From: Patescibacteria group bacterium | Lineage (GTDB): Bacteria > Patescibacteriota > Patescibacteriia > Patescibacteriales > JAQVLT01 | Direction of reading: 5' to 3' | NCBI GenBank assembly: GCA_028704015.1 | Contig: JAQVLT010000001.1 | Coordinates: 39,484 to 103,483, forward strand | Length of the DNA stretch: 64,000 bases | Part shown: positions 10,622-59,932 of the stretch, piece after piece | How positions within the stretch are numbered: the stretch's first letter is position 1 | Layout of the letters: every line of letters begins with the position of its first letter | Notes under the pieces: generated by a model | Seen by the model: the letters and a program-made list of their open reading frames with translations, nothing else | Database searches by the model: none | What the model was told of the DNA's origin: nothing | Position numbers and translations under genes: made by a program

Positions 10622-11977
10622 TTATCTAATATAGTTTAAAGGATTATACATTACGCCGTTTATAATCACCTCAAAATGCAAATGGGAACCAGTTGACCAA
10701 CCAGTGGAACCCATGGCGCCGATGGTTTGCCCCTTTCTTACTTCATCACCTTTGCCAACATAAAATTTTGACTGGTGGGCATATCTGGTTTTTTTGCCGC
10801 CGCCGTGATCGATCACAATATTATTTCCATAACCAGTACTCCAGCCGGCAAAAATTACCGTACCAGCATCAGCCGCATAAAGCGGCGTGCCAATCTTATT
10901 AGCAATATCAAGGCCATGATGCCGCCAGGAATAATATTGGGTAATGCGATAACCTTGCGTCGGCCAATTCATCTTGTTGCCAGCAGCCGGTGAGGCGCTT
11001 GATGGTTTCACCATATCTTTAATCGCGGAAATTCCTGAATAACGCGCAGTTTGCGAGCTGGCATAACGTGATTTTGAGCCGCCTGGGATAATTAATCTTT
11101 GTCCTATTTTCAAATCATTAATGTTGCTCATGCCATTAGCTTCCATTATTTTCTGCGATTCCACGTTATAAAGAGACGAGATCTTACCCAAATTTTCCCC
11201 ACGCACCACTTTGTGCACTACTCCGGTTACCGGCAAAATTGAAATAATCTGCCCAGGCCTAATCAAGCTAAAAGCGCTTAAATTATTTTCCCACAAAATT
11301 GTATTCACGCTAATTTCAAAATCTTCCGCTATCGTACTAACCGTATCGCCGATTTTAACCGTATATTCTATAACTCCTTGGCGCGGTTGTTTTGTTTTTT
11401 TCGTTGCGGCAAATTCCGTCCCTCTAATTGCTAAACCACCTTCGGTAATAGCGCCAATTTCTTCTGATTCCTCCTGAATTTCAGGTACAACAGTTCCGGT
11501 TTTTGATGCATCTCCCAAAGCTTCATTTTGCTCCAAGTAATTTCCCGAGGTAATAGTCGATGTCGCACCCTCGTTCGGCAATTCTTCAATTAAATAATCA
11601 TCTTCAATATCGCCAAATTCGCTAGGAACCAAACTTGACAAAATAGTGTTATGGGCTTGTTCGGAAATGCTTGCCTGCGTCTTTGAAACAAAACTATTTA
11701 AAATTATTATCAATGTTAATATTAAAACTAAAAATTGAGAAGCTCTTTTACTTAGAATAAAATTCAATAAACTGTCCTTAGCCGTCCAGCCAAAAGTTTT
11801 TAAGAAAGAAAGATATAAACTATACAATTTAATTATAATTTTTTTATAAATAAAAATCCAAATTACTCCCAATGGTCTGCTGACAACAATAAAAAAAGCG
11901 GTCAAGAACCTCTTTGCAAATATAAAAAATTTCGCTAAAAATATGAGTATTTCTACTAATATTCTTTTTATTTTCAA
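10622..11977 (-). CDS. LysM-domain M23 family metallopeptidase
   Basis: Two LysM repeats (YTVKIGDTVSTIAEDF, HKVVRGENLGKISSLY) and M23 motifs HHGLDIA and GSTGWSTGSHLHFEV. Start is TTG in the track. Confidence 0.85.
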   Translation of the reverse strand: MKIKRILVEILIFLAKFFIFAKRFLTAFFIVVSRPLGVIWIFIYKKIIIKLYSLYLSFLKTFGWTAKDSLLNFILSKRASQFLVLILTLIIILNSFVSKTQASISEQAHNTILSSLVPSEFGDIEDDYLIEELPNEGATSTITSGNYLEQNEALGDASKTGTVVPEIQEESEEIGAITEGGLAIRGTEFAATKKTKQPRQGVIEYTVKIGDTVSTIAEDFEISVNTILWENNLSAFSLIRPGQIISILPVTGVVHKVVRGENLGKISSLYNVESQKIMEANGMSNINDLKIGQRLIIPGGSKSRYASSQTARYSGISAIKDMVKPSSASPAAGNKMNWPTQGYRITQYYSWRHHGLDIANKIGTPLYAADAGTVIFAGWSTGYGNNIVIDHGGGKKTRYAHQSKFYVGKGDEVRKGQTIGAMGSTGWSTGSHLHFEVIINGVMYNPLNYIR

Positions 11978-19222: not shown

Positions 19223-19610
19223 TGGTGGAGATGGCGGGAGTTGAACCCGCGTCTAATAAGTGCCTAAATCTAATTTTACAAGCTTAAACTGGTTTAAAAT
19301 TTAACTAAATTTATCAAAGCCAGGCAAAAGTAAATCTAGCGATCCTTTATTGCTTTCAATTCGCTGTCAAAGGCGGACCGCGAATCTATCCTTATGGTTG
19401 ACACCCGGATCCGGTTATAAGGAGTCTCCGGTCGGATGGTTGCGGCTATTAAGCGGCAACTGGCGCAAAGGCTGGCATGCTAAAAGCAAGCTTTACTTTG
19501 CTAACTAAGTTTTTTGCACTTAGAATTTTGCAAGCTACAGTTTACGTGACAGCTTGCCCGCACGGCCTGAATAAATGTAAGCGATCTTATTATCGATGCC
19601 TAGCATCCCC
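19223..19610 (-). ncRNA. ssrA: tmRNA (ssrA)
   Basis: 5' GGGGATGCTAGGCATCGA and 3' GCGGGTTCAACTCCCGCCATCTCCACCA. Internal reading frame ends ..PVAA-TAA-TAG. smpB is adjacent. Confidence 0.9.
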
Positions 19611-29142: not shown

Positions 29143-29928
29143 ATGGAAGAAAAAAACTGTTGCGCCGCTGGCTGGCGTAGTCCGAAAACAATATTAATCT
29201 TTCTCGGAGTAGTATTGCTTGCGGCAATAATTATTTTTTCTATTCTCAGAGAAAAAATAGTCCAAAATGATAACTGGACAATCAATGTTGTTGGCCAAGG
29301 TAAAGTTGCTTATCAACCAGAAGTAGCCAAAGTAAGCCTTGGCGTACAAATTGATAAAGTGCAAAAAGCTGATGACGCCCTAAATCAACTAAATACAAAA
29401 ATGAATAGTATCGTCAAAGCTTTGAAAGAAGCGGGCATCAGCGAAGAGGATGTACAGACACAAAATTATACTTTATCGCCGCAATACGATACAATACAGG
29501 GCGAATTAAAAGTAGGAGGCTACAGCACTAACCAAACCGTAGTGGTAAAAGTCAAAGACATAGTAAATAACCAAGACAAAGTTTCTAAAATTATCGCTAT
29601 TGCCACGAAGGCAGGCGCCAATCAATTGGGAGGCGTGGCTTTTGAACCGGAAAATGTTAATGACCTAAAACAAGAGGCCAGAGTAAAAGCAATTACTGAC
29701 GCGCGCAACAAAGCAACCGGCATCGCCGGTGCCTTGGGCGTTAAACTGGGAAAAGTAGTCGGTTGGTGGGAAAATACTATTTCTTCACCTGATTATTCTG
29801 GATATTCCTACTACGGGGGAGGAATCGGCGGAGGAGGCGGCGGAATGGCGGGCGGAAGCGTTCCGTCAGTACCGACCGGTTTAAGAGAAATAATTATTGA
29901 AGTAAATTTGAACTATAAAATAAAATAA
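29143..29928 (+). CDS. SIMPL/DUF541 domain protein with a Gly-rich C-terminal segment
   Basis: TM anchor, AKVSLGVQ...QTQNYTLSPQY, LREIIIEVNLNYKI. Confidence 0.6.
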   Translation: MEEKNCCAAGWRSPKTILIFLGVVLLAAIIIFSILREKIVQNDNWTINVVGQGKVAYQPEVAKVSLGVQIDKVQKADDALNQLNTKMNSIVKALKEAGISEEDVQTQNYTLSPQYDTIQGELKVGGYSTNQTVVVKVKDIVNNQDKVSKIIAIATKAGANQLGGVAFEPENVNDLKQEARVKAITDARNKATGIAGALGVKLGKVVGWWENTISSPDYSGYSYYGGGIGGGGGGMAGGSVPSVPTGLREIIIEVNLNYKIK

Positions 29929-30308: not shown

Positions 30309-31034
30309 TTACTTTACATTGAGAATGCATTTTAAAACCGTATTATCGCCAAACTGTTTTTTGAGAATTTTAGCGTTAGAAACCACGCAATGCCCCCCGA
30401 TTTTTCCCTGTGGCGGAAATAATACCGGCCGAATTACATTTTTTTTGCCCAATTTTTTATATCCTTCGTTGTAAGTAGTGTTAAAATCTTTCATTACTAT
30501 ATCAAAATCCAGATTTAATTTTTGGCAAAGTTTAAAAGCATAATGATGGAAGGAAATGCAAGACCCATAATAAGTGGTGTCCAAAAGTTTCCCCAATTCC
30601 GTGGCGCGGGAATCTTTGCAGGCGAGAACCTTCATTCCCAAATTTCTGAAGTGTTTACTCACAACTTGTGCGGTTTTATTATCGTCGCTACCAACATATT
30701 TAACAAAAGTTTTAATGCCTTTATGTAAATTTGGATGCACTCCCCTTATGGGGCTATGAGCAATATTTTTAAATTCTTTCCCAATTTTTCTGGTTGTGCC
30801 AACCGCGACAGTTGAATGAATGACAACATATTTAGGATGAAATTTTCTGATTATTTTTAATACTTCTCCAACAAATTCCTTGGAATATGGGATGCAGACA
30901 TGAAGAAAATCCATGCCAACTATAAATTCATTTTTCCCCTTATCCCCAATTAAAGGATTTTTGTAAAATTGAGCGACCGCCTTGCCAACCTCTCCAAATC
31001 CTAAGACGCCCACTTTAATCTTATTTTTTTTCAT
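30309..31034 (-). CDS. NAD-binding dehydrogenase, short UDP-glucose/GDP-mannose dehydrogenase-like
   Basis: Rossmann VGVLGFGEVG and a GGHC cysteine motif near the C-terminus. ATG at 31034. Confidence 0.45.
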   Translation of the reverse strand: MKKNKIKVGVLGFGEVGKAVAQFYKNPLIGDKGKNEFIVGMDFLHVCIPYSKEFVGEVLKIIRKFHPKYVVIHSTVAVGTTRKIGKEFKNIAHSPIRGVHPNLHKGIKTFVKYVGSDDNKTAQVVSKHFRNLGMKVLACKDSRATELGKLLDTTYYGSCISFHHYAFKLCQKLNLDFDIVMKDFNTTYNEGYKKLGKKNVIRPVLFPPQGKIGGHCVVSNAKILKKQFGDNTVLKCILNVK

Positions 31035-31157
31035 AATTTTATAATCAAACAAAATAATTTATAATTAAAAAAATACCTCTAACTTTAGTATATAGTTAAA
31101 AGTATTTTTATTCAATCCTAATTTGAAATTGGTGCCCGAAAAAGTTAAAAAAAATTT

Positions 31158-32777
31158 TTATTGAAATGATTGATTATAAAAAAAAGAGCCATGAAGCTCA
31201 TTTTTCCATTTAGGGGTGGCTACTGGGCAATGACCCAACACTTTCATTGACGAAAGCATAATTTTGAATTCGTCGTGCGGTTCAATGCCCACCACTTTTT
31301 TATCTTTAACCCAAACTCTTTTAATTATTAGTCTTACCCAATCCCTTCTTTCATCGTCGCCTATATCCGCTTTCCATAAGGTTTTGAAGTCTCTTAAAAA
31401 ATTATCAACTTTTTTCATCGCCCGTTCTTTATTCGCTTTAAAACTACCAGCCATTAAAACTCCAATGCTTTTATATTTTCTCAATTCCTCCTCAATCTCG
31501 CCGAGTTGCAACAAATAATCATCATTGCTAATCTCATCGGTATTGTCGTATTTGAAATTTAGTTTTCTCTTTTTAGCCAAAAGATTTTTAACTATTTGCA
31601 TTTCCACTGAATCGTCTTGAAAGCTATCAAATATTTCAGACGCCTTTTTTAGCGTATCTCTTATTATATCCTCTGAAACCTTAACGCAACCCATATAATT
31701 TAAAACTTGCTTGTCTATTATATCGCAGGGAACATTGGGCTGATTGCACGCTTTGGCTTCTCGCTTAAACTTACAAGTATAATAATATACTTCTTTATTT
31801 TTCCTGTCTATTTGCGTGTGGCAATACATTTTAGGGATAAAATTATTGGTTTTTTGTTCTTCTCTACCTTTCATATGCTTAACGCAATGGAAGCAATAGA
31901 CTAAACCTTGCAGCAAATAGAATCTATGTTTTGCCGTTGGCCGTCCGCAGGTATGCGATTTTTCGCTAATGATTTCTTGGACTTTCTCAAATATCTCCGT
32001 ATTTATAATCGCTTTATGCCCGCCTTTAACATTGGGGCAATCACGTCTGGGAGAAACAACTAATCCTAAATAAACTTTATTTTTCAAAATATCTTTTATT
32101 GAGCTAACCGTGAAAGGATTTTTATGTTTCGTTTTTAACCCTTTATCGTTTAAATATTTAGCCAAACTGGAAAAGGAATATTTGTTAGAGGCATAGAGTT
32201 TAAAAATCTCTTTTACTACTTTTACTTCAACTTCATCAATAAACAAATCTTTGGTGTTGCCTTTCTTTTTACAATAACCTAGGGGTGGATTGCCAAGACA
32301 AAATCCTTGTCGTCTCTTTTCTGAAAAAGCTTTCCTCATCCAAAAGCTTAATTGGCGACTGTAGTGTTCATCGAAAACCTCGTGGATTGTTTCGTTTAAA
32401 AAAACGTGCGGACTACTTGAATCGCCGAAATCTTGGCTGACAAATAACACTTCTATTCCCAGTTTATTACGAAGTAATTTCTTGTAATGTTGAGCTTCTT
32501 CAATGTTACGCGCGAAGCGGGAAGTATGAAATACTAAAATTACTTGAAATTTTCCTTCCATGGCGTCGCTTATCATTTGGTTAAAGGAATCTCGCTTTTC
32601 CGCTGAAGTTCCTGAAACCAAATCTTTGTAAAAACCAATCAGCTCAATATTATGTTTCTTAGCATAGGCGCGAATATCATTCTCTTGTTTTTGAGGCGAG
32701 AAGCCCTTGTCTTGGCTTTCGGTAGATTCTCTGATATAAAAGACTCCTAAACGCTTTTTTTCTTTAATTTCTTCCAT
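31158..32777 (-). CDS. large serine recombinase (resolvase/invertase N-domain, recombinase domain, zinc ribbon)
   Basis: GVFYIRESTESQ (catalytic Ser), VLVFHTSRFARN, Cys clusters CFHC...CKFK..C. ATG at 32777. The 3' end runs across the 14-nt tRNA-His-derived repeat. Confidence 0.85.
   Translation of the reverse strand: MEEIKEKKRLGVFYIRESTESQDKGFSPQKQENDIRAYAKKHNIELIGFYKDLVSGTSAEKRDSFNQMISDAMEGKFQVILVFHTSRFARNIEEAQHYKKLLRNKLGIEVLFVSQDFGDSSSPHVFLNETIHEVFDEHYSRQLSFWMRKAFSEKRRQGFCLGNPPLGYCKKKGNTKDLFIDEVEVKVVKEIFKLYASNKYSFSSLAKYLNDKGLKTKHKNPFTVSSIKDILKNKVYLGLVVSPRRDCPNVKGGHKAIINTEIFEKVQEIISEKSHTCGRPTAKHRFYLLQGLVYCFHCVKHMKGREEQKTNNFIPKMYCHTQIDRKNKEVYYYTCKFKREAKACNQPNVPCDIIDKQVLNYMGCVKVSEDIIRDTLKKASEIFDSFQDDSVEMQIVKNLLAKKRKLNFKYDNTDEISNDDYLLQLGEIEEELRKYKSIGVLMAGSFKANKERAMKKVDNFLRDFKTLWKADIGDDERRDWVRLIIKRVWVKDKKVVGIEPHDEFKIMLSSMKVLGHCPVATPKWKNELHGSFFYNQSFQ
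31214..31227. repeat. direct repeat gggtggctactggg, left copy (displaced tRNA-His 3' end)
   Basis: Identical 14-mer at 42306-42319. The next ~11 nt still resemble a T-arm. Confidence 0.85.
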
Positions 32778-32863
32778 AAATTTTAAGTTAATTATATATA
32801 AATATATTATAAAATGTTTTGGGATATTCCACAAGCAAAATTATGCTAACATTAGGTAAAAAT

Positions 32864-32892
32864 TTGACATTATGTTAACACGAAATTATAAT
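32864..32892 (+). promoter_or_regulatory. consensus sigma70-type promoter, divergent from the recombinase gene
   Basis: TTGACA (32864-32869), 17-nt spacer, TATAAT (32887-32892). Confidence 0.65.
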
Positions 32893-32911
32893 AAAAATAA
32901 GCCTGATATTT

Positions 32912-33058
32912 ATGAAAATAAACATCAAATTATTTTTAGAAGCACTAAATATTAATCGTAAAGAAGTAAGCGAAGTGATTCAACTTTCGCCAAATTTAGT
33001 TAAAGTAGTTTGGGCGGACGGGATGAGCCAAAAGTTTAAAGTAAGCAAAATTATTTAG
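32912..33058 (+). CDS. 48-aa ORF downstream of the consensus promoter (possible Xis/RDF-like or regulator)
   Basis: MKINIKLFLEALNINRKEVSEVIQLSPNLVKVVWADGMSQKFKVSKII; a helix-turn-helix-like middle. Below the track length cut-off. Confidence 0.35.
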   Translation: MKINIKLFLEALNINRKEVSEVIQLSPNLVKVVWADGMSQKFKVSKII

Positions 33059-33061
33059 CAA

Positions 33062-33562
33062 TTAAATTCCCAGCAGTTGCTTTTTCTTTGTTTGAAATTC
33101 CTCCTCGGTAATAATTCCCCGGTTTTTCATATCAGCCAATTTTTCTATTTCGTCATAATTACTACCTGATTTATTGTCTTTGCCTAATCTTGCGTCTTCT
33201 ATAATCTTCTCCCATGACCTAAAAAACGGCTCGGCTATTTTATCTAAATGTCCTAGAACGAGTCCATTTACATAAGAACGGCGTTCTATTGTTTTAGTTC
33301 TATTTTTGCCTTCTTCGTTGTACGAAATATCTAAAAAATCATAACCAGCCATAACTCCCTTTTTTGCTCTCACGTTTGTTATATTTTTAAGAGGGATATT
33401 AAATATTTTTTTACTAAGGCAAAGAAAGTAAATTTCATTTTGCGTTAAAACTAAACTGCCTTTCTTTTTTCCAAACAATTTTCCATTGTCATAAATTAGA
33501 TTAGATTCTTTTTTGATTATTTTTTCATCCTGCATATGTTTAATTATTTTATAACTTACCAC
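33062..33562 (-). CDS. PH-like (bPH/GRAM-type) plus SHOCT domain protein
   Basis: C-terminal LADMKNRGIITEEEFQTKKKQLLGI is a SHOCT signature. Start ambiguous: GTG at 33562 or ATG at 33535. Confidence 0.5.
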   Translation of the reverse strand: MVSYKIIKHMQDEKIIKKESNLIYDNGKLFGKKKGSLVLTQNEIYFLCLSKKIFNIPLKNITNVRAKKGVMAGYDFLDISYNEEGKNRTKTIERRSYVNGLVLGHLDKIAEPFFRSWEKIIEDARLGKDNKSGSNYDEIEKLADMKNRGIITEEEFQTKKKQLLGI

Positions 33563-34586
33563 CCATCGCTTGATAAGCGTTTAAAACATTTTCTAATGAC
33601 GTCTTTTCTGCTTCTGTAATTACACGGTCTTTATAGTAATCTTTGCCCTGATATCTTATCTTTGACTCTTTTGATTCTATTATTAATTTTGCAATTGCTA
33701 TCGCCATTGAATCCGCCTTTTCATCAGACCACTCCCAAACGGTATTTGAATTATCTCGTTTTATTTCGCTTGGAACATAATCAGTAGTTACATCGAAAAT
33801 TTTAAATATATAACGATTTATAAATAACCAATCTCCCCCGGCATAGCTCACTCTAAAACGAAGTGTCGGCACGTTCTCTTTGTTTACGCCAAAATACATA
33901 CTGACATTATTTGTATTGCGAGTCTGTGGTGTGTTTTGGTCATAATACCAAATAATGCCTTGCATATCATCAACCTCTTTTACCATTTTGCTTAAAGCAA
34001 TTTGTCTTTCTTTTTCTTCCGCCTCGGCCTTAGCTTTATTTTCCGCTTCTTGAGCTTCTTTCTTTTTTTGAGCGATTGCTTTTTCTTCTTCCGTTAATTC
34101 TCTTGAGATAATTATATTATCACTTTTATTTTTATTCCGGTAGCTGGCGAATAGACTGATTTTGTTTTCTCCTTGGTTTAAAGAAATTTGGCGAGAAAAA
34201 TGACCACCTTCAATTGCCACTTGCTCTCCGTTAATTTTCAAAGTAGCGTCCACTGGATTTATTGTGCCACTAATTGTAATTTGGTCGCTAAAGACATTCT
34301 TTTCGTGATTTTCTATGGTGATAATAGGGGTTGGAGAGCTAACATCTTTTATTATCGATATCGTAGGTGATATCATCATCAATCCTATAATTGAGATAAT
34401 AATTATTTTTATCTTTTTATTTATTTTTTCGCTTCTCCAAACATAAAAACCAATAACAATAAATATCGCCATTGCGAATAGCTTCGCCATTACATTATTT
34501 AACGATGGGAAAATAGTTCCTATTAAACCCAGCAAGAAGAAACCGATAAAGAAAATACCGACTCCTTTTAAGATTTTTTTGGTCAT
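33549..34586 (-). CDS. membrane-anchored protein with Ig-like and coiled-coil segments, hypothetical
   Basis: Three N-terminal TM helices, a beta-rich ITISGTINPVDATLKING segment and a KKKEAQEAENKAKAEAEEKE coil. Confidence 0.4.
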   Translation of the reverse strand: MTKKILKGVGIFFIGFFLLGLIGTIFPSLNNVMAKLFAMAIFIVIGFYVWRSEKINKKIKIIIISIIGLMMISPTISIIKDVSSPTPIITIENHEKNVFSDQITISGTINPVDATLKINGEQVAIEGGHFSRQISLNQGENKISLFASYRNKNKSDNIIISRELTEEEKAIAQKKKEAQEAENKAKAEAEEKERQIALSKMVKEVDDMQGIIWYYDQNTPQTRNTNNVSMYFGVNKENVPTLRFRVSYAGGDWLFINRYIFKIFDVTTDYVPSEIKRDNSNTVWEWSDEKADSMAIAIAKLIIESKESKIRYQGKDYYKDRVITEAEKTSLENVLNAYQAMGGKL

Positions 34587-34944
34587 ACTTTTTATAATTA
34601 AATAAATAAAATTAATTTTTTCCCACGCAAAAGGCCTCCCAACATAGTTTCATTACCCTTTCGGGCAATGGCATAGACAGCAAAAACTAGTCAGGAGACC
34701 ATCTCCGCTGTCTATGTCTTTTTAACCATGCCCAACGCACGTTGGGTTTAGGTCTAAATTTTCTCAAATTAATTATATTATAAAGCTACTGAAAAATAAA
34801 GACCTAATCCAACTTCGCCCCTAAATTAGCCAATTTTTAAAGTTTTCAATGAGCATATAATTTATTACCCGTTTTCCCTGAAAATCTGTCTAAGGGGAGA
34901 TTTTGCGGTTTTAGGGTATTTCTAGACAACGGACTTATAATGCA

Positions 34945-36087
34945 TTATAAGTCGGCGTTGAAAATCCAATTTTCTTCAATAATTTTATTTAACTTGGCAT
35001 TGTAGAATAACAGCTTGCTTTCAGAATTACTATATTCTGGCTTCAAATAATTCGTAATAATTTGATCGCTTTTTAAAAATATGACTTCCGGCCTATACGC
35101 TTTTTTTGCCATATCAATACATTTTTCTAAATTTTCTCGCGAGACTAATTCTGAAGGAATGCGAATTACTGCAAAACCTTCTGTGGTTAGGCATAAATTA
35201 GCTATCCTGTCCCTTTCAATGTTTTCTTCTATTTTTCCATGAAAATATTCGCTGTCTATTTGGAGTATTATTGGATATTTTGCGTCTTTCAAACGTAAAC
35301 AAAAATCAACGATGTACCCAATAAAATATTTTTTGTCTCTAAATATTTTTATTCCGAGCTGTTCCTGAATCATGTCTAGCCCCATTTCTTTAAGCAACTG
35401 CCTAGTTAATATTTCGGCCCGTGTTCTTTTAGGATTTTTTACGCCTGCTTCAATTCTTTTTTCACTTATCTTTAATTTTGTACTTTCCTGGCAAGGGGTG
35501 CCTTTTCTATTTTTTTGTCGATTTGCTTCTCTGAAACAATTCTTTATGTTTTGCCTAGATTTATTTCTTGCGCTTCTTAAAATCGTAAAATTTCTTCTTC
35601 TGATATAGCGAAGCTCTTTGTTTATAGGTATGCCCCTCCTTTTAAATAAACTAGTAACAGCTCCCGCGGTCACGCCAAATCGTTCAGCTATCTGAATAAT
35701 ACTTAACCCCTCTTTTTTATACATTTTTTCTAGCGCTTCTTTTGTTTTTAATTCGGCATTTCCTTTTTTAAATTTTAATTCAGCTGGTTTTTTTATACCA
35801 AATTTTTTTAGTGCTTTATTAATTTTGCTTGCCGATAAATTAAATTCTTTCATAATATCGGGGGCTGTTTTTTTTAGGATAATATAATTTTTTTCTAAAA
35901 ATTCTTTTGTTAAAGGTTTCTGAAATTCAGACTCTCGGCTAAATTCTAGATTTTTAATCTTTTTAATCCCATATTTTTTAAGCTCCTTTTCTATTTCTTT
36001 ACCAGACGCCCCCGTTTCTTCCGATATTTGTTTAATGGTTTTATTTTTATTCAGATAATTCTCTGATAAATACTCTTTGGTAATCAT
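34945..36087 (-). CDS. multi-HTH protein with C-terminal DUF559/Vsr-like PD-(D/E)XK endonuclease domain
   Basis: Three repeats of the I(S/A)E..G.S...I.K.LKK(Y/F)GIKK type, then VDFCL...ILQIDSEYFHG...RDR...GFAVIRIP. Confidence 0.5.
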   Translation of the reverse strand: MITKEYLSENYLNKNKTIKQISEETGASGKEIEKELKKYGIKKIKNLEFSRESEFQKPLTKEFLEKNYIILKKTAPDIMKEFNLSASKINKALKKFGIKKPAELKFKKGNAELKTKEALEKMYKKEGLSIIQIAERFGVTAGAVTSLFKRRGIPINKELRYIRRRNFTILRSARNKSRQNIKNCFREANRQKNRKGTPCQESTKLKISEKRIEAGVKNPKRTRAEILTRQLLKEMGLDMIQEQLGIKIFRDKKYFIGYIVDFCLRLKDAKYPIILQIDSEYFHGKIEENIERDRIANLCLTTEGFAVIRIPSELVSRENLEKCIDMAKKAYRPEVIFLKSDQIITNYLKPEYSNSESKLLFYNAKLNKIIEENWIFNADL

Positions 36088-36136
36088 AGATTTATTTTTG
36101 TTCTTTTCTGAAAAAGCGTGGCATTTTAAGTTATTT

Positions 36137-36820
36137 TTACCGCGTTTTTTCAGAAAAGAACATTGCGTTTAAAATTGTTAAATAGATGACATCTTGGCCA
36201 GCCTTTTGTTCGGTTACGATATAGATGTCAGACACAGTATTACCAGCATAAGTGGTAGTGTCATCGGCGATAGCAAAGGTCGGGATAATTGGCAATTTAC
36301 CTACCATTGATTGATAGAAGTTTACATCAATACCAGTAGATACAGAGTTAGTTTGGTCTAGGTTAACTCTTACATCACCAGCTAAAGACTGATTAATAGC
36401 TCTCTTCATTCCATAGGAACAATAGATAGCAGTCGGTTTAGCATTGTAAGTTTTAACGATATTGGCAATCTCTTTTTCTATTAAATCAGTTCTAAAACCA
36501 AGAGCATTGTTATTATCATCAGTGACGTTAGTGGTGATAAGAGTTTTCAAGCCGTCAAACTGTAATGCAGATACACCAGAGTTACCAGTGATGATGAATT
36601 GCTCTTCGTCTTGGATGGTTTCTCTAATAGCGATTTCAGTTTGCTCTGCTTCTTGGTCCATAAAGGACTTGCCAGCGGCTAACATTCTATCAGTGATAGA
36701 TTTGGTTTTACCCAATTCTTTATACACCGCAGAACGCCTTACATAGGTAGAAGCGCCTTCAGTCGGAGTGCCGCCTTCTGCGAAAGGAGCATTACCTACT
36801 CCGATAGCAGTTAGATTCAA
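36137..36820 (-). pseudogene. fragment of an HK97-fold phage major capsid protein gene
   Basis: No ATG; the track M is a TTG inside a longer frame. FAEGGTPTEG...SITDRML...EQFIITGNS..FDGLKTLIT resembles the middle of a capsid protein. The C-terminus ends in unrelated hairpin sequence. Confidence 0.45.
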
Positions 36821-37036
36821 GGCGGTTCTTTTGGTTTATCGTCTAAAAGGTGAGGATTCTTGCGTATTAATTCGCAAAAGAATTCTGCTAGTTTGTTGAC
36901 TGTCTGCTCGCTATAATTTTCATTTGTTTTTAGATTGTTTAAATTGTTCATTTCCCAAAAATAAAAAATAGTCATTGCAAGACTATTTTAAATTAATGGG
37001 CATTCATAAAATTCATATGATATTCATATGAATCTT

Positions 37037-37732
37037 TTAATGGATATACTTAGGATTTATTCTTACTTTTTTCATATCATATTTAAGAAAATCATTTATA
37101 GCTGTTTCTCTGGCTATGCTTTGATTTATGTTATTTGCTTTACCATTGAAGCGCTTAAGTAGTGATTCCTTTTCTCTTTTTTCGGGTAAGCTAGCATAAT
37201 ACTCAGGTTCCCATTTATTTTGGATGTCTGCGTAAAAGCATTCTTGTTGGGGGTCTTTAAATAGTTCCGCAAGCAAATCATATTGTTTAGATTTTTTTGA
37301 GAAATCAATTTTTTTTCCAGCAAAATATAAAATGTGATTTTTTTCATCAAATCGAGGACTGTGCTTAGTTATAACTGAAGTAGGGTCGTTTTTTTTAATA
37401 AGAACATCATAATTTTTATAAAAATCCTTCGTCAGAATTATATTATAATTTGAATACTCTTTTAAATTTTCAAACGGCATTACAATATCCATCGTGGAAA
37501 AATTTTCTAGCCATTCATCTGAAACCCTAATTTCTTCCTTTATAATATTTTCCTTCTTTAAGTTTCGAATTATATCTTTTAGATACCTTCTCTCTATGTT
37601 TAAATTTTGTAGTAACTCCGGGGTGATTGGAATTATTTTTTTCTCTATTGATGTGCCGATGGTAAATAAGTCAACTTCTTTTTTGAGAAACTTGAGGAAA
37701 ACGCATAAATCTATTTTAATTTCATCTTTCAT
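37037..37732 (-). CDS. hypothetical protein, possible C-terminal OmpR-type winged helix (4th gene of the RT operon)
   Basis: KKIDFSKKSKQYDLLAELFKDPQQECFYADIQNKW resembles trans_reg_C. Its start lies 2 nt after the HNH stop. Confidence 0.4.
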   Translation of the reverse strand: MKDEIKIDLCVFLKFLKKEVDLFTIGTSIEKKIIPITPELLQNLNIERRYLKDIIRNLKKENIIKEEIRVSDEWLENFSTMDIVMPFENLKEYSNYNIILTKDFYKNYDVLIKKNDPTSVITKHSPRFDEKNHILYFAGKKIDFSKKSKQYDLLAELFKDPQQECFYADIQNKWEPEYYASLPEKREKESLLKRFNGKANNINQSIARETAINDFLKYDMKKVRINPKYIH

Positions 37733-37734
37733 AC

Positions 37735-38469
37735 TTATTGAATAGAATTAATTTCACTAAATTTTAATATATAAAAATTGGCAATCATTGAGCCATTTTC
37801 TAAGATACTTCTCCTTCTTTCCATGTCGAACATTATTTTTACAAAAAGATAATTAAACTCAAAAAAAGCAAATTCCTTGTCGTCTTCGCAAGTTCTTATA
37901 AAACGATAACTCATACCAGCTTCTATTGACTTTGAGTTTGATCCTAGTAAAAGATAACCACCAAAATCTTTTTTTCCTAAAATAATATCTCTGATTTCAT
38001 CAAATCTTGGTGATAATGCTAATACGGCGCCATAATCTAAATATATAAGTTCCAAGGCAATTTTATACAACGATCGTGATATTAATTTTAAATTTTTACT
38101 ATCCATTTTTTTCTTTCCGAAAAAATTTAGTTTGCAACCATTTATAGTTTGTGCGAAATCACCTTTATTCTTTCTTTTTAATTTTACTTCTATATCAGCC
38201 CCTGAGGAATTTTTAAAATCAATGGTGCTAAAATTTGCTGTAGGAATCTTGCCAGACTTTGATTTTATGCCATAAATTGTTCTCTGAAACAATATAGGGT
38301 CAAAATTTACTAAAATACTATCTAATAATGATAAAGTTTCATTATTACATTTGTCGCATACTACTCCTTTAGGTAAAATTTTTTCTTTATTTCCTAAGGA
38401 TTCTGGAAAAATATGCTCTACGCTTGAGAATAAATTTTTTGTGTTTTTGCAAAATAAACAAATCCCCAT
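37735..38469 (-). CDS. HNH endonuclease domain protein (3rd gene of the RT operon)
   Basis: CLFCKN...SVEHIFPESLGN...VVCDKCNN at the N-terminus. Confidence 0.7.
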   Translation of the reverse strand: MGICLFCKNTKNLFSSVEHIFPESLGNKEKILPKGVVCDKCNNETLSLLDSILVNFDPILFQRTIYGIKSKSGKIPTANFSTIDFKNSSGADIEVKLKRKNKGDFAQTINGCKLNFFGKKKMDSKNLKLISRSLYKIALELIYLDYGAVLALSPRFDEIRDIILGKKDFGGYLLLGSNSKSIEAGMSYRFIRTCEDDKEFAFFEFNYLFVKIMFDMERRRSILENGSMIANFYILKFSEINSIQ

Positions 38470-38493
38470 AGATTTATAGTATATTTTTGTTAT

Positions 38494-39579
38494 TTATTTT
38501 CCCCTAACTAGGTCTATTTCTGCCTGAATTTGTTTGTCCAAATCTCTAGCTGCTTCCTCAAAAACGTCAGAAATCATCTTTAGTTCTGTCATGATTGTGA
38601 TATATTTTTCTAAGGCTTTACTTTCAGAAAGATTTGTGATCAGGTTCGCCTGATTATTTATTTCCGATATTCTACTCTTATTAATTTTTTTCCAATTATT
38701 TTTATATTTCAAAAATAATTCTTTATATTTTTTTTCTCCACTGAGCTTGTCTTCTTCAAAAACCCTTATCTCTTTCTTGTTTATTATGTGGAATGAATAG
38801 TAAAGGCAGTATTCATTAAATTTCCAATTTTTGGCATACGGGAAAAAGATGGAAAAGTCTTTTTTTATAAAGGATATATTCTTTCTGGTTCTTTTTAGAT
38901 TTCTTTTTATATTTTCTTTTAATAATGCTTGAATATTTTTTTCTCTTTTATCAATAAAATTAAAGAATCTTTTAAAAAAATATTGCCATTCTTCTTTAGT
39001 ATTGCTATTAAACCAAGCAGAATCTCTCTGCCTTTTCCGCACAAAGGGGTCAAAATTTTTTCCTTTTAAGGAAGTTATGCCTAACCCATTGCCCCACAAT
39101 ACTTTATTTTTTGTGATTATGTTATGTAATAAGATTAAACTTATTTTAACTAATAGTTTATCTTCGTCTATCGTATGGTAAAGGTTATTTCTGACGTTGT
39201 GACAAAAGGCAATTTTTTGTTTTTCTTCCTGCGTAATAATTAATTCTTTAACGCAAGTTTTTAATAACTCTCCATGATAACATATAATTTTTTCTCTATC
39301 CTTCTGTTTATATTTTTTGTGCAAAATATAACTTAATCCGTCTCTGAAAAGTATAGCATCCATTAATGTCCTTAATTGAATTTCAATAAAATTATCCAGC
39401 AAGATAACTGCCAATCTTTGATATGCGAAATCTTTTATTCTGCCAAACCTTGAGGCTTCATTTAATTGTATTTTTAACAAAACAGTTCGCTCCATAATAA
39501 AATAAATAATTATTTTTGAAAAAGTTCTATATAGCGCTGGTGTAGTGAAGAAATATTCATTTTTGTAATTGGCAAACAA
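38494..39579 (-). CDS. HEPN-type (Rx4H; AbiD/AbiF-like) predicted RNase (2nd gene of the RT operon)
   Basis: Codons 39192-39175 read R-N-N-L-Y-H (CHNVRNNLYHT) in an alpha-helical protein. Start is TTG at 39579 or ATG at 39495. Confidence 0.55.
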   Translation of the reverse strand: MFANYKNEYFFTTPALYRTFSKIIIYFIMERTVLLKIQLNEASRFGRIKDFAYQRLAVILLDNFIEIQLRTLMDAILFRDGLSYILHKKYKQKDREKIICYHGELLKTCVKELIITQEEKQKIAFCHNVRNNLYHTIDEDKLLVKISLILLHNIITKNKVLWGNGLGITSLKGKNFDPFVRKRQRDSAWFNSNTKEEWQYFFKRFFNFIDKREKNIQALLKENIKRNLKRTRKNISFIKKDFSIFFPYAKNWKFNEYCLYYSFHIINKKEIRVFEEDKLSGEKKYKELFLKYKNNWKKINKSRISEINNQANLITNLSESKALEKYITIMTELKMISDVFEEAARDLDKQIQAEIDLVRGK

Positions 39580-39618
39580 ATAGTACGGTTCATTTAATTA
39601 AGCTCTGAAAATCACTAT

Positions 39619-41031
39619 TTATCTTATATATTGTTTAGGATAAAAGTTCGTTTTTAGATAAACCAATCTTTTTTCTATATGAGTACAATTTAAATTTAAT
39701 TTTTTATAAAATTTTAATAGGGTGTAATGATAATTGTTATGAATCAATTCGTCTGATAATTTATTAAGAAAATTAATAAATTTTATTCTCTCTCGGTTGT
39801 TAAGGTTGTTGTATATTTTTTCTAAATGCCAAGCTTTAATTTTTTGCGATTGTATAAACTTGGGTTTTAGAAATTCGTAGAATAACTTTTTAACTTTTTC
39901 GTGCTGATTTTTAGAGGTAATTAAATTTAATAACCTTATCATTAGTGAGGAGCCATCATTTTTAAGCCCCTCCTTATTTTCTAAAAGAAAATCTATGGCG
40001 TCGTCTACTATTAAATGGTTTCTCTCAGACAGAAGTAAGTGCCATTGGAATGCCATATATTGCTCAAAGTCTTTTTTGTCTTTTATATCAACTTTTTTTT
40101 GATTAATGCATAGCCCATATTGCGTTAGTGACAAAGAAGCTAAATATGCTATCTCAGCCAAATCATTTTTTGATTTTGCAAAGATTATCTGGTCGTCAGC
40201 AAATCTTAGATATTTAGCTTGGTATCTTTCACATATTGCCAACATTTGATGATCATAGTCTTGCAAATAAAAATTCGCTAATATTCTAGAGCAATCTGCT
40301 ATTTCATCTTGGGGAATGCCAACGCTTTGTTGACTGTAAAAATTATAATCCCTATTCCAAAATTTTAAAAAGTGAAAAAGTAAACTAATCACATCGTTTT
40401 GCTCTGAAGGGCAAATGCCTCTTATTTTATCTTCTAACACATCAAGTCTAATTGAATCATAAAAATTGGCAATGTCCATCTCTAAAACGTAATTATGTTT
40501 ATTTGCCTTACACGAATGAACGTATACATTATTTGTAAATTCTCCCCATGCCGCCCTCCATGCGTTTGGGTTGAATGATGTTTCCATAGGGTATTCTTCT
40601 GACATGTCTAAAGTGACAATGTCGCCGTTCGGCATTTCGTATGACTTAAACGTTTGATTGTAATATTCTATTTCTTCTCGTTCTTGAGTGCGAATTTGTC
40701 CCCCAAGCTTCCATCCACCGTAGGTGCCAGGAGCCCTATTTCCTGATATATAATTCTCTAGCTTCTTAATACAATAAAAGTAAACACAAGTATCTCGGGG
40801 TGTAAATACTGGCACTATTCTAGAAATTGAATTCCCCTTATTAAATATAATATAACTTCTTGGTTTCTCGGGATAATAAGTTTTTTCAACTATTGAGGAA
40901 TGTAAATCACGCAAGAGTTCACGTTTATTATAGTCTTGCTCTATCGGGCAGAGGGTTTCTTTATTAATTTTTTTCCAAAACTGGCTAGTATTAACTGAAA
41001 AAATTTTATAAAAATTTTCAAAACTTTCCAT
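39619..41031 (-). CDS. reverse transcriptase, non-intron Abi/UG-like, with helical C-terminal domain (1st gene of the operon)
   Basis: RT motifs RIVPVFTPRDTCVY, MDIANFYDSI, GIPQDEIADCSRILANFYL, YLRFADDQIIF (FADD codons 40192-40203), GLCINQKK. ATG at 41031 (GTG at 41052 possible). Confidence 0.85.
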   Translation of the reverse strand: MESFENFYKIFSVNTSQFWKKINKETLCPIEQDYNKRELLRDLHSSIVEKTYYPEKPRSYIIFNKGNSISRIVPVFTPRDTCVYFYCIKKLENYISGNRAPGTYGGWKLGGQIRTQEREEIEYYNQTFKSYEMPNGDIVTLDMSEEYPMETSFNPNAWRAAWGEFTNNVYVHSCKANKHNYVLEMDIANFYDSIRLDVLEDKIRGICPSEQNDVISLLFHFLKFWNRDYNFYSQQSVGIPQDEIADCSRILANFYLQDYDHQMLAICERYQAKYLRFADDQIIFAKSKNDLAEIAYLASLSLTQYGLCINQKKVDIKDKKDFEQYMAFQWHLLLSERNHLIVDDAIDFLLENKEGLKNDGSSLMIRLLNLITSKNQHEKVKKLFYEFLKPKFIQSQKIKAWHLEKIYNNLNNRERIKFINFLNKLSDELIHNNYHYTLLKFYKKLNLNCTHIEKRLVYLKTNFYPKQYIR

Positions 41032-41153
41032 CGTGTTGGCGAAAATTAGCACGCGGTAGTGGTTGCCACGTCTAAATTATAATTAGTCAATTCTGCTTTT
41101 AATTTTGCACCTTTTATTATTAAAGTCAACTGTAAATTAGATTTTTACATATT

Positions 41154-41178
41154 GCAAAAACACCCCCGAAAAGGTGTT
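41154..41178 (-). terminator. rho-independent terminator separating ORF 41215-42150 from the RT operon
   Basis: aacacc/ggtgtt stem followed by a T-run on the minus strand. Confidence 0.6.
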
Positions 41179-41214
41179 CTTAATGTCGGTAGATTACAGA
41201 TAGAGCGAGTTCAA

Positions 41215-42150
41215 CTAGAACTCCATTTGTTTTGGTTTTTCAAACGGCATGTATTCTGTAACCAACTTAATAGAATAAGAAGATGCGATTTTATTGTTGG
41301 AGTCCTTTTTTTGCTTTATTTCTAAATCAACTTTTAAAACATCCTCCGCGTAAAGTCTGATTTCTCCGCTGTGTAATTTTTTTAAAAATACTTCATCATC
41401 AATAGTTACTGGCCATAAGACATTATTATCTCCCATAATAAAAGAATATGCTTTTTCTTCGCCAGAATAAGAACCTCGTTTTGGTTTTAAATAAATATTT
41501 TTCAAAATTGAAATATTATCTTCAGTTTCTTCTGATAATTCCGTGTGTGCATATTTTTCAATAAACTCAATATCTTCTTTTTTAATAATTTGCTCAGTGC
41601 TATCTTTCGCAGTTATTTTAAAGCTTACCTCGGTAGTTGCTGGAAATTTGCTAAACGGTGCAACCGTGCAATTGTAATAATTGTTTTGCACCAAAGGAGA
41701 TTGGACTAGCTTGTGTTCAGCCATGCTAACTTCCAACTTTTCACCAGTTGGAGAGATATAAGTTATTGTCTCACCATTATCTTTTCTTTCAAAATTTGAA
41801 ACTATACCCCTGGTGAATTGTATGATTTTAATTAAGCCCGTAACTCCTTCTTTTGCATTCAATCCCAAAAACGATAGAAGAAGCATTAAGCTTTGCCCAT
41901 CATCATCTTTGAGATAGTTTAATAAATGAGGTACCTGTGAATGCTGAATAACAAAATCAGTTATCCAAGAACCTTCTCTGAATGGCTTAACTTTAACATC
42001 TATTTTTTGTTCGAACCCAAGAATGTTGTTTGCAGAACGAATAAGTTCGCCAAAATGCATTAAAACGGGTGCTATTTCAAAAACATCAACGCCGTCATCG
42101 GCATTAATTCCATTCAGTTTATATATTATTTGAGTTTTTGAAATTTTCAT
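41215..42150 (-). CDS. hypothetical protein (island gene, own transcription unit)
   Basis: 311-aa ORF from ATG at 42150 (MKISKTQ...); no motif recognised. Confidence 0.45.
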   Translation of the reverse strand: MKISKTQIIYKLNGINADDGVDVFEIAPVLMHFGELIRSANNILGFEQKIDVKVKPFREGSWITDFVIQHSQVPHLLNYLKDDDGQSLMLLLSFLGLNAKEGVTGLIKIIQFTRGIVSNFERKDNGETITYISPTGEKLEVSMAEHKLVQSPLVQNNYYNCTVAPFSKFPATTEVSFKITAKDSTEQIIKKEDIEFIEKYAHTELSEETEDNISILKNIYLKPKRGSYSGEEKAYSFIMGDNNVLWPVTIDDEVFLKKLHSGEIRLYAEDVLKVDLEIKQKKDSNNKIASSYSIKLVTEYMPFEKPKQMEF

Positions 42151-42270
42151 ATTCAAATATATTATAACATATAACTAAATGAATAGCACTGGCGAAAACA
42201 AAATTTTTTAAGAGAAACACAATTTTTTATTTAATTAATAATTTTAAAGTAAACCAGTTTGTATAATACT

Positions 42271-42298
42271 AAAAACACCCCAATTAAGGGGTGTTTTT
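42271..42298. terminator. perfect bidirectional hairpin downstream of tRNA-His
   Basis: aaaaacacccc-aattaa-ggggtgttttt. Confidence 0.75.
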
Positions 42299-42305
42299 AC
42301 TTCAA

Positions 42306-42319
42306 GGGTGGCTACTGGG
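42306..42319. repeat. direct repeat gggtggctactggg, right copy (3' end of the intact tRNA-His)
   Basis: Identical to 31214-31227. Confidence 0.85.
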
Positions 42320-42379
42320 AGTTGAACCCAGGTTACTTGCGCCACAAGCAAGTGTTCTAGCCGTTGAACCATAGCCACC
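42307..42379 (-). tRNA. tRNA-His (anticodon GUG) with G-1
   Basis: G-1 plus acceptor GTGGCTA/TAGCCAC, discriminator C, anticodon loop TTGTGGC. Unusual T-loop TTCAACT. Confidence 0.85.
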
Positions 42380-42478
42380 ATGATATAATATATTTTACTT
42401 TAACTTATTAAGATACATTTCACAACCGAACAATTTAATTTCAACAATGGGGTTGTGTCGTGGAAAGTCTTTTGTCGT

Positions 42479-42542
42479 TGGGAATCGAACCCAGATCATC
42501 GGGACCACAACCCGATGTACTAACCGCTGTACTATAGCCACC
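42479..42542 (-). pseudogene. tRNA-His copy lacking the last 3'-side T-stem base and the whole 3' acceptor strand
   Basis: GGTGGCTATAGTACAGCGGTTAGTACATCGGGTTGTGGTCCCGATGATCTGGGTTCGATTCCCA, then unrelated ACGACAAAAG. No sequence pairs with the 5' acceptor. Confidence 0.8.
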
Positions 42543-42583: not shown

Positions 42584-43123
42584 CTAAATCTTATACAAAT
42601 ATATTTTGCTATTTTCTCCCAGCTCTAATATTTTTTCTGTTTTCATATTTGGTAAAATAAACTGATAGCTTACCACTAGCGTTCCCGGTTTGCACTCTTT
42701 TTTGAATTTCTCTTCCAGCTTCGCCATCATATTGGGAAATAGATAACAATAAATCACATCCGCATCTTCTAAATTTATCTTGAACATATTTTTCTTCCTG
42801 ATTTTTATTTTGCTTTTTGCCAAACTCAATTGAATTTTGGAAAAAAAATAAGGAAACGAGGAATATTCTATGCCGATACATTTTGCTCCTGGGTATCGCT
42901 CTTCAAATGCGCGCAGAAATCCGGCCTTGCCTGATCCTAATTCATAAACCGTACCGCTAAAATTCTCACCAAAATTAATATTCTCAAAAATTTTATTAAT
43001 CACATCATATTTAGTGGAAATAAATGGAGCATAGCCGCGGAAAAGCATATTAAAAAACTGAATAGCCACAAAAACAGCCAAAACTATTAATATTAAATTC
43101 AAAATTGTTAAAAAATAAAACAT
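42584..43123 (-). CDS. class I SAM-dependent methyltransferase with N-terminal TM helix
   Basis: Motif I YELGSGKAGF, then IGIEYS. Confidence 0.55.
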   Translation of the reverse strand: MFYFLTILNLILIVLAVFVAIQFFNMLFRGYAPFISTKYDVINKIFENINFGENFSGTVYELGSGKAGFLRAFEERYPGAKCIGIEYSSFPYFFSKIQLSLAKSKIKIRKKNMFKINLEDADVIYCYLFPNMMAKLEEKFKKECKPGTLVVSYQFILPNMKTEKILELGENSKIYLYKI

Positions 43124-43161
43124 AAATTTTAATTTTTTAAATTTCTAAATTTTTATACTTG

Positions 43162-43233
43162 TACGCCCGGGGGGAATCGAACCCTCATAACCAGCTTAGA
43201 AGGCTGGTGTTCTATCCATTGAACTACGGGCGC
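43162..43233 (-). tRNA. tRNA-Arg (anticodon UCU)
   Basis: Acceptor GCGCCCG/CGGGCGT, anticodon loop CTTCTAA, GGTTCGATTCC. Confidence 0.85.
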
Positions 43234-43257: not shown

Positions 43258-43334
43258 AACCCTCATAATCCCGCCGAGGCGGGACTGGTGTTCCCTGCCT
43301 GCCGGCAGGCAGGTATCCATTGAACTACGGGCGC
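43258..43334 (-). pseudogene. decayed tRNA-Arg copy carrying two GC palindromes
   Basis: GCGCCCGTAGTTCAATGGATA-[cctgcctgccggcaggcagg]-GAACACCAG-[tcccgcctcggcggga]-TTATGAGGGTT. Confidence 0.75.
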
Positions 43335-43554
43335 AATAAATAATAGTCCCGATTATTCGGGACGATTATAATTTAACAGAAATAATGAAGAAAGTCAACC
43401 AAAACGTTAAAAATTTTTAATTTCCAATTTTTAATTTTTAAATAATATCTTAATTTTTAATTATAAAATATTAGAAATTATTATATTTATAAATTATTTA
43501 AAAATTAAAAATTACAAAATTTAAAAATTCTATACTGTTTTTTGATATTATAAG

Positions 43555-44394
43555 TTAATTATCCCTGATTCGTTGCCTCGCTACCTCGTACATTATAATC
43601 GCTCCGCTAACTGACACGTTAAGCGAATCAATCTTTCCGTGCATAGGAATTATAATAAGCTCATTGGCATTGTCCAACCAATATTTACTCAAGCCCTTGT
43701 CTTCCGCGCCGAGAATTATGGCGGAAGGTTTTTTGTAATTAATTTCTAAATAATTTTTCTTGGCTGGCAAGGCGGCGGCGTAAGATTTAATTTTATTTTT
43801 TTTAAGCCAAGCTACGGTTTCGGCCGGCGTAGAAGCAACTGTTCGCATAGAAAAAATCGCGCCGCGGCTCGCATGAATAACGTTTGGATTATAAATATCA
43901 ATTTGTTCTTCATTAAAAATCACGGCATCCGCCTGCGTGGCATCAGCCGTTCGCAAAATCGCTCCCAGATTCCCAGGCTTTTCTACCGCTTCCAAAACTA
44001 CAATCAAGGCAGGCCTCGCTTCTCCCCCTCGTTTTGAGGGGGAGTTAGAGGGGGTCATGATATCTTCTAATTTTAAATCGTCCGGCCGACGGGCTAAAAC
44101 TAAACATCCATCCGGATTTTCGCGATAAGAAATTTTTTTAAAAACAGCTTCCGTAACTTCAATAACTTTTTCTTCTACTGCCGAAAATAAACTTACATTT
44201 GTTTGTCTTTGGGAATTTTCTTTGGCCAATTCCGGACAATAATAAACTTCCATAATTTCCAATTTGCACTCTATTGCCATTTCTATTTCCTTCTTTCCCT
44301 CAACCACAATCAAGCCGGTTTTTCTTCTTTCGCGCGGCTTGTATAATTTGATAATCTCTTTAATTTTTTCATTTTGTGGGCTGGTAATAATCAT
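43555..44394 (-). CDS. TrmH/SpoU-family RNA 2'-O-methyltransferase
   Basis: VLEAVEKPGNLGAILRTADA, IIPMHGKIDSLNVSVSGAIIMYE. Contains a GC-palindrome-encoded insert, TPSNSPSKRGGEAR. Confidence 0.8.
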   Translation of the reverse strand: MIITSPQNEKIKEIIKLYKPRERRKTGLIVVEGKKEIEMAIECKLEIMEVYYCPELAKENSQRQTNVSLFSAVEEKVIEVTEAVFKKISYRENPDGCLVLARRPDDLKLEDIMTPSNSPSKRGGEARPALIVVLEAVEKPGNLGAILRTADATQADAVIFNEEQIDIYNPNVIHASRGAIFSMRTVASTPAETVAWLKKNKIKSYAAALPAKKNYLEINYKKPSAIILGAEDKGLSKYWLDNANELIIIPMHGKIDSLNVSVSGAIIMYEVARQRIRDN

Positions 44395-58342: not shown

Positions 58343-59826
<1,484 letters not shown>

Positions 59827-59932
59827 GTATTGAAAGTTTTTATACTTTCAATTTTTGAGTTTTATAGCTCTTAGCAAATTTTTTAAAAAAACTTGCAAAA
59901 AATATTTGAAGAAATAAATCTTCTATAATTAG

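Follow-up and report, generated by a model that had tools for sequence, protein, structure and literature searches.

Here we describe an 11.3-kb element, encoding a large serine recombinase (LSR), that very probably integrated into the resident histidine tRNA (tRNA-His) gene of its host, split that gene in two, and brought with it an intact tRNA-His of its own. The element lies in a 64-kb stretch of DNA (the window), to which our survey of this genome was confined and whose numbering we use throughout. We observed the anatomy of the element, the domains of its recombinase, its junctions, and its recurrence in five other elements. The original prediction had placed integration by a serine recombinase in the T-arm of tRNA-His; a full-length LSR, five replicas, and a palindromic element attachment site (attP) at the proposed junctions support this claim.

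The 5′ part of the host gene is read on the minus strand from G-1 at 42542 through the D-arm, the GUG anticodon arm, and a TTCGATT T-loop to a CCCA ending at 42479, after which the sequence runs on as ACGACAAAAG. The bases at 42480–42479 (C and A) are the same in both recombination partners and are assignable to neither. An Rfam tRNA model matched this copy at positions 8–63 of 71 only (39.7 bits), and a tRNA-His nhmmer profile matched at positions 1–63. ARAGORN, run on the window, called the intact tRNA-His and not this copy; a tRNA-His at 42479–42542 without its 3′ acceptor strand had been predicted, and the coordinates are right. A fragment that completes the gene lies at the far end of the element, within the last codons of the LSR open reading frame (ORF). 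It reads CAGTAGCCACC (31225 to 31215, minus strand) and consists of T-stem C63–G65, the acceptor strand TAGCCAC, and the discriminator C73, with a hairpin and T-run following at ∼31175–31200. When 42542..42481 is joined to 31225..31215, ARAGORN calls a tRNA-His, as anticipated, with the cloverleaf, GUG anticodon, genome-encoded G-1, and discriminator C73 by which a bacterial tRNA-His is recognized.

A protein-guided scan of species-representative genomes with the neighboring SpoU methyltransferase gave 29 loci. In twelve Patescibacteria-type loci without an LSR, SpoU is followed by tRNA-Arg(TCT) and then by one single tRNA-His, and thus a resident tRNA-His at this position is ancestral. In four of the twelve (L002, L005, L007, and L009), the two tRNAs are separated, like those of the window, by the 179-amino-acid methyltransferase gene. 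The rejoined host copy is 84% identical, and the element copy 78%, to the resident tRNA-His of the closest relative, L005, a weakly informative comparison over 73 nt.

By every sequence criterion we examined, the protein encoded at the far end is an LSR. It carries the Pfam domains Resolvase (PF00239, E 3.8e-22), Recombinase (PF07508, E 5.6e-21), and a zinc ribbon (PF13408, E 6.4e-07; 30.1 bits against a cut-off of 25.3), and its N-terminal domain resembles solved serine-recombinase catalytic domains (PDB 3guv, 3g13, and, weakest, 3bvp, the TP901-1 integrase). Y14, R16, S18, Q22, R62, and S86-R87-F88-A89-R90 are invariant in an alignment of 27 homologues; an identical protein appears in our protein search as P0001. 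Recombinase activity is predicted on these grounds. The last 22 codons (31158–31223) are host DNA, the coding sequence crossing the junction into the tRNA 3′ fragment.

The intact tRNA-His spans exactly the predicted coordinates, G-1 included (ARAGORN places it at 42306–42378), and has the cloverleaf, GUG anticodon, G-1, and C73 of a bacterial tRNA-His. It lies 101 nt inside attL, the junction with the host 5′ part, in the orientation of the split gene. Host and element copies in the window are 77% identical (57 of 74 aligned columns), with 30 of 42 positions alike in the 42-bp window of the chromosomal attachment site (attB). The TTCAACT T-loop of the element copy had been called odd, a description that does not hold, as it is also found in the resident tRNA-His of relatives L006, L007, and L009. 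An automatic terminator scan listed nothing at the terminator-like hairpin directly after this tRNA, and a promoter scan gave nothing in the 101-nt spacer and one weak promoter-like site, upstream of the truncated copy (42588–42560). The element tRNA-His is presumably expressed, and we infer that it compensates functionally for the broken gene because all six elements compared below carry the isoacceptor of the gene that they split.

Recurrence in related elements and the probable site of exchange

Homologues of the LSR number more than 600, almost all from Patescibacteria metagenome-assembled genomes (MAGs) and metagenomes, and we obtained their contexts through exact-protein look-ups and a metagenome scan. 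Six elements are complete: that of the window and those of L035, L045, L060, L062, and L069, whose LSRs are 59%, 50%, 40%, 42%, and 49% identical to the window's, respectively. They measure 8.4–11.3 kb and share one layout: a truncated tRNA-His 5′ part, a conserved end (..AAAGACTTTC), a co-oriented intact tRNA-His, cargo, the LSR gene, and a tRNA-His 3′ fragment. Upstream of each of the five further LSRs, a tRNA-His profile found a copy truncated at model position 65–69 and an intact copy further inside. The break falls at the same nucleotide (position 62) in all six and is followed directly by the conserved element end nnnTRACCnAAGACTTTC. No tRNA other than tRNA-His lies between the ends of any of the six, and it is always co-oriented with the split gene; its distance from attL is 4.6 kb in L062 and 78–675 nt in the other five. 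A motif, GTTGTGAAATGTAT, lies ∼60–70 nt inside attL in the window and in L035, with a partial form, GTTGTGAA, in L045.

Rejoined host halves were called tRNA-His by ARAGORN in all six elements. Despite a separation of 8–11 kb, the acceptor halves covary across hosts: the 5′ and 3′ strands are GGTGGCTA and TAGCCACC in the window, GGTGAGTG and CACTCACC in L045, GGTGCCTA and TAGGCACC in L060, GGTGACCA and TGGTCACC in L062, GGTGGCCA and TGGTCACC in L069, and, with one mismatch, GGCGACCT and AGGCCGCC in L035. The distant 3′ fragments of L035, L060, and L062 each pair with the acceptor strand of their truncated copy and not with that of the intact one.

The same arrangement extends beyond the complete elements. 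About 25 distinct family members (LSR at least 40% identical) abut a tRNA-His-type 3′ terminus: the gene ends in AAAGTnnTnGGTCAnnnCC, three further nucleotides, a 7-nt acceptor strand, and C. These acceptor strands end in ..CAC-C or ..CGC-C and pair with a tRNA-His start G-1/G1/[U or C]2/G3. The resulting C-terminal tail, of the form P-x-x-[T/A]-x, was present in 88 of 109 homologues. The conserved C-terminal peptide KV[LI]GQxP is thus encoded by one half of the recombination site, and its conservation would be explained by codons that double as an att half-site.

Joining the element ends reconstructs attP as an imperfect palindrome of ∼40 bp, GAAAGTnTTnGGTCAnnn-CC-nnnnGACnAAAGACTTTC. With the center at tRNA positions 61–62, the number of reverse-complementary positions between its 18-nt arms is 14, 14, 13, 13, 12, and 16 across the six elements. 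When the center is displaced by 1–3 nt, the match falls to 2–6 of 18 (L062, with 11/18 at −2, is an outlier); at −3 the value is 0 in all six, which probably reflects the left arm running out of sequence. Five elements have CC at the center; L060 has CT, and its target T-stem reads CTCAC rather than CCCnn. In the window it falls at 42482–42481 in attL and 31227–31226 in attR, the junction with the host 3′ part, and the reconstructed junctions read ...GGGTTCGATTCCCAGTAGCCACCCCTAAATGG (attB) and ...AAAGTGTTGGGTCATTGCCCAACGACAAAAGACTTTCC (attP). Serine integrases are expected to have matching central dinucleotides in attP and attB, and symmetry and covariation together argue that CC is the dinucleotide exchanged. 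The original prediction had given tggg as the crossover. Four bases, CCCA, are indeed all that attP and attB share in the window, and comparison of the six elements narrows the exchange to CC; the next bases, C and A, would be shared by chance, which accounts for the four-base assignment. We also considered the reverse assignment of attP and attB and rejected it: the flanks are syntenic with relatives, and the LSR lies between the junctions.

The anatomy is that expected if the LSR recombined the attP of the element with an attB in tRNA-His. The final conserved codons of the recombinase gene would hold the left attP arm, and exchange would occur at the CC of tRNA positions 61–62, where the 3′ strand of the T-stem begins. 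The host gene would thereby be left as a 5′ part of about 63 nt (42481–42542) and an 11-nt 3′ part (31215–31225). For a serine recombinase a match at the central dinucleotide suffices, so that the element would not regenerate the tRNA gene; the complete tRNA-His inside attL, with its own hairpin and T-run, would be supplied as the replacement, so that the cell would keep a histidine tRNA. Precise excision would rejoin the host gene.

Alternative explanations

The original prediction had offered two successive integrations at the same tRNA as an alternative; the structure does not require them, and nothing that we found supports them. One form of this alternative places the boundaries differently. 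An exact 14-nt direct repeat, GGGTGGCTACTGGG (31214–31227 and 42306–42319), flanks the island, and the window holds exactly two copies of this 14-mer (chance expectation ∼0.13, and two or more copies in 0 of 100 shuffles). As in classical islands that target tRNA genes, the repeat could be the att core of an element integrated at the 3′ end of the intact tRNA-His, the truncated copy being the relic of an earlier event; 42307–42379 would then have been joined straight to CCTAAATGG, with the truncated copy upstream. Because both window copies end in the same 14 nt, the far fragment fits either equally, and the window alone cannot assign it; relatives and attP symmetry decide. The conserved right end adjoins the truncated and not the intact copy in all six elements, attP is symmetric only if the junctions are put at 42481 and 31226, and the far fragments of L035, L060, and L062 match the truncated copy and differ from the 3′ end of the intact one, which excludes the direct-repeat placement for those three. 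Moreover, Pfam found no tyrosine integrase domain (Phage_integrase) in the ten largest ORFs of the element, and the equal acceptor and T stems of the two tRNAs explain the 14-nt identity. We therefore regard this placement as highly improbable.

Integration could also have occurred as we propose and yet the carried tRNA-His be ordinary cargo, serving codon supply or escape from tRNA-targeting defenses, in a host with another tRNA-His. Phages and islands often carry tRNAs, the element holds defense-type cargo, and 64 kb of this genome were examined. Patescibacteria genomes, however, are small, with tRNA genes usually in single copy; relatives have a single tRNA-His at the locus, and all six elements carry only the isoacceptor that they disrupt, co-oriented and usually right behind attL. 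Ordinary cargo thus seems to us very unlikely. A local pseudogene origin of the truncated tRNA-His, with no connection to the island and with the far fragment a chance match or the relic of another element, we consider extremely improbable. Degenerate copies upstream of the intact tRNA-Arg in the window and of the tRNA-His in L002 mean that tRNA debris exists at this locus; against such an origin, the truncation falls at position 62 in six independent elements, a conserved element end directly follows each, and the far fragments covary with the truncated copies.

Besides the shared 14-nt ends, several points weigh against integration with replacement. Our view of the genome covers 64 kb, and a third tRNA-His may lie elsewhere in it. 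Exact look-ups of the proteins at 42584–43123 and 29143–29928 returned island-bearing contigs only and no island-free strain (that at 30309–31052 gave no record); all three other assemblies found carry the same island, and attB is a reconstruction rather than an observed site. Every junction examined is in the integrated state: we found no excised circle or intact attP, and a degenerate palindrome pattern gave 0 hits in viral_contigs. The rejoined L035 host tRNA has an A4·C69 mismatch. Host and element copies are identical in L069 and one base apart in L045, and how the recombinase spares the element's own tRNA-His is not explained by the model.

Cargo, recombinase family, and genomic setting

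The coordinates of the element and its surroundings are collected in Table 1. GC content is 27%–34% over most of the element and ∼35%–47% in the flanks. Its ∼9 kb of cargo, between the tRNA-His and the LSR, also includes ORFs for an HNH endonuclease, an SU10-type capsid-like fragment, a helix-turn-helix/DUF559 protein, and a SHOCT protein. With a UG13b reverse transcriptase beside a PDC-S42-like protein (39619–42156), the island appears to carry an anti-phage system. The match to the LOOT RNA family falls in an intergenic gap; related elements L031, L032, and L035 gave none. Related elements carry restriction-modification genes, AAA_15/SMC ATPases, a Phage_CRI replication protein, and M78/DUF4411 pairs, and by their gene content these elements look less like complete prophages than like small defense islands. 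In viral_contigs, one distant LSR was all that a protein-guided scan gave, the family being nearly absent from that viral contig collection.

Table 1. Features of the integrated element and its locus (window coordinates)
Feature	Coordinates	Strand	Basis or remark
Integrated element, 11,255 bp	31226..42480	−	central dinucleotide to central dinucleotide
LSR, 539 amino acids from MEEIKE	31158..32777	−	Pfam
Host tRNA-His 3′ part, 11 nt (attR, B-right)	31215..31225	−	
attP left half-site ATGAAAGTGTTGGGTCATTG	31228..31247	−	inside LSR codons for MKVLGHC
LOOT RNA family match (RF03000)	34641..34754	−	Rfam 62.1 bits, gathering score 46.4
Reverse transcriptase UG13b, 477 amino acids	39619..41052	−	PADLOC RT_UG13b E 7.4e-133; Pfam RVT_1
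313-amino-acid protein, candidate defense family PDC-S42	41215..42156	−	PADLOC E 3.1e-29
Hairpin CACCCC-TTAATT-GGGGTG, then TTTTT, directly after element tRNA-His	42271..42293	−	terminator-like by eye
Element tRNA-His(GUG), intact, G-1 and C73	42307..42379	−	ARAGORN, Rfam 64.4 bits
attP right half-site CAACGACAAAAGACTTTCCACGAC	42457..42480	−	14/18 symmetric to left arm
Host tRNA-His 5′ part, G-1 to C62 (attL, B-left and central CC)	42481..42542	−	
Methyltransferase-like gene, 179 amino acids	42584–43123	−	
tRNA-Arg(TCT), intact	43161–43233	−	
SpoU methyltransferase	43555–44394	−	

Among related elements, a 163–170-amino-acid ORF with a Recombinase domain (PF07508) only lies just upstream of the LSR in L031 (6401–6913), L032 (9381–9872), and L035 (9369–9860), and could encode a regulator or directionality factor. 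The window has no homologue of it, its 166-amino-acid SHOCT protein being unrelated, and no directionality factor was identified. A second tRNA-His 3′-like fragment lies 40–100 nt downstream of attR in L032 (∼11650–11715) and L035 (∼11610–11660). It reads CAACTCCC[AG/TC]TA[G/A]CC[G/A]CCC, follows a conserved GC hairpin (GATCCCGCACC...GGTGCGGGA), and shows no break point of the LSR type; either a structured element or the remains of earlier events could account for it.

Two other groups of LSRs also lie next to tRNA genes. In a subclade with tails such as ..AESDPR or ..GSNP, a tRNA-His 5′ part in reverse complement adjoins the end of the LSR gene (L048, 1989–2058), which, from the one locus examined, suggests the same target position used in the opposite orientation, with a central GG instead of CC. 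A more distant clade (L065–L117; 32%–36% identical) is found in high-GC, mostly soil metagenome contigs. In 26 of its 34 loci the LSR end converges on, and overlaps, an intact tRNA-Asp(GTC) encoded on the other strand (e.g., L077, 11451–11526, and L088, 11538–11612), and a conserved GGTGyAAAGnG lies just before the tRNA-Asp 3′ end. Here, a second serine-integrase clade appears to land at a tRNA gene, at its very 3′ terminus and without splitting it.

On the minus strand, from high to low coordinates, the locus runs SpoU, a degenerate tRNA-Arg, tRNA-Arg, the methyltransferase-like gene, the truncated tRNA-His, the spacer, the intact tRNA-His, cargo, and the LSR. The SpoU methyltransferase is at most 53% identical to proteins of Falkowbacteria-like MAGs, and the source is a Patescibacteria genome resembling Falkowbacteria. 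The degenerate tRNA-Arg 5′ copy (43260–43345, minus strand; ∼100 nt upstream of the intact gene) is broken up by two GC-rich hairpins (CCTGCCTGCCGGCAGGCAGG and TCCCGCCTCGGCGGGA) and stops in the T-loop. A comparable hairpin-laden D-arm-like copy lies upstream of the L035 tRNA-Arg (82–186), and a hairpin-laden degenerate tRNA-His-like sequence upstream of the L002 tRNA-His (5890–6000). The window also holds a tmRNA with an unusually long tag peptide (AKNLVSKVKLAFSMPAFAPVAA; 19223–19610) and a 16S rRNA gene (58344–59827), both on the minus strand and both usable for taxonomic placement of the organism.

Known systems and implications

The Resolvase, Recombinase, and zinc-ribbon architecture of this LSR is that of phiC31, Bxb1, TP901-1, A118, and SCCmec CcrAB. 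As in known LSR systems, a non-palindromic dinucleotide lies at the center of an imperfectly palindromic attP, attB has few bases in common with it, and the target gene is cut and not regenerated. Known LSRs target protein-coding genes or intergenic sites, whereas the target here is the T-stem of tRNA-His; in further contrast, attP overlaps the 3′ end of the integrase gene, and the element supplies a whole replacement gene. Islands of tyrosine integrases (the classes of Williams 2002; Islander islands) likewise have a tRNA landing site, a displaced tRNA 3′ fragment at the far end, and an integrase gene at one end. They rebuild a functional hybrid gene and leave long direct repeats; here, the ten largest ORFs include no tyrosine integrase, the true junctions have only 4 nt in common, the host gene is left broken with an attL copy devoid of its acceptor strand, and a separate complete gene is carried. 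The filamentous phage phiRSM reportedly targets tRNA-Ser, and we know of no replacement tRNA for it. As cited in PMC7192596 (Askora et al. 2011), phiRSM resembles our elements in associating a serine-family recombinase with a tRNA gene and differs in that the enzyme is small and resolvase-like rather than an LSR.

The same source states that tyrosine-integrase islands rebuild the tRNA with a fragment carried in attP, and describes gene replacement as a nuance exemplified by a Rhodobacter island that encodes a tmRNA and lies in a tmRNA gene (Mao et al. 2009) and by islands that inactivate hrpB (PMC7192596). In those cases, as in the window and the five further elements, the target is inactivated and unrestored and the island carries a homologue; as presented there, they are isolated and concern tmRNA and a protein gene, in contrast to the systematic targeting of an essential tRNA by an LSR clade in Patescibacteria. 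In our search, which covered open-access full text, we found no account of a serine integrase splitting a tRNA gene and bringing a substitute for it. The enzyme class and the principle of replacement are known, and what appears to be new, judged from the elements compared, is the class of target and its systematic occurrence across a clade.

Integration with replacement explains a tRNA-His fragment and a second tRNA-His lying 11 kb apart, in which annotators would otherwise see a pseudogene and a duplicate. Island-mapping software that expects a regenerated tRNA and a direct repeat would probably miss or misplace such elements. The serine integrases of this family, whose short att sites are predicted to lie in a conserved tRNA, could furnish integration tools for Patescibacteria, for which, to our knowledge, genetic tools are currently lacking.

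Serine integrases are thought to avoid tRNA genes, as they cannot rebuild what they cut; this clade would represent another solution, in which an essential tRNA gene is cut and a spare brought along. If so, and if the genome has no other copy, the integrated element holds the only working tRNA-His, and its loss by any route save precise LSR excision would be lethal. Should the split host halves decay, as the A4·C69 mismatch in L035 may foreshadow, precise excision would be lethal as well. The element tRNA would in turn take over as the resident gene, on which the next element could land. Hints of such turnover are the identical or nearly identical host and element copies in L069 and L045, the extra tRNA-His 3′ debris downstream of attR in L032 and L035, and the host 3′ end of L031, which matches the acceptor end of the tRNA in the element of L035. 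It is possible, although on present evidence doubtful, that these elements drive horizontal turnover of the essential tRNA-His in Patescibacteria and in doing so make themselves hard to lose. The arrangement suggests a route by which tRNA genes may be replaced horizontally in reduced genomes.

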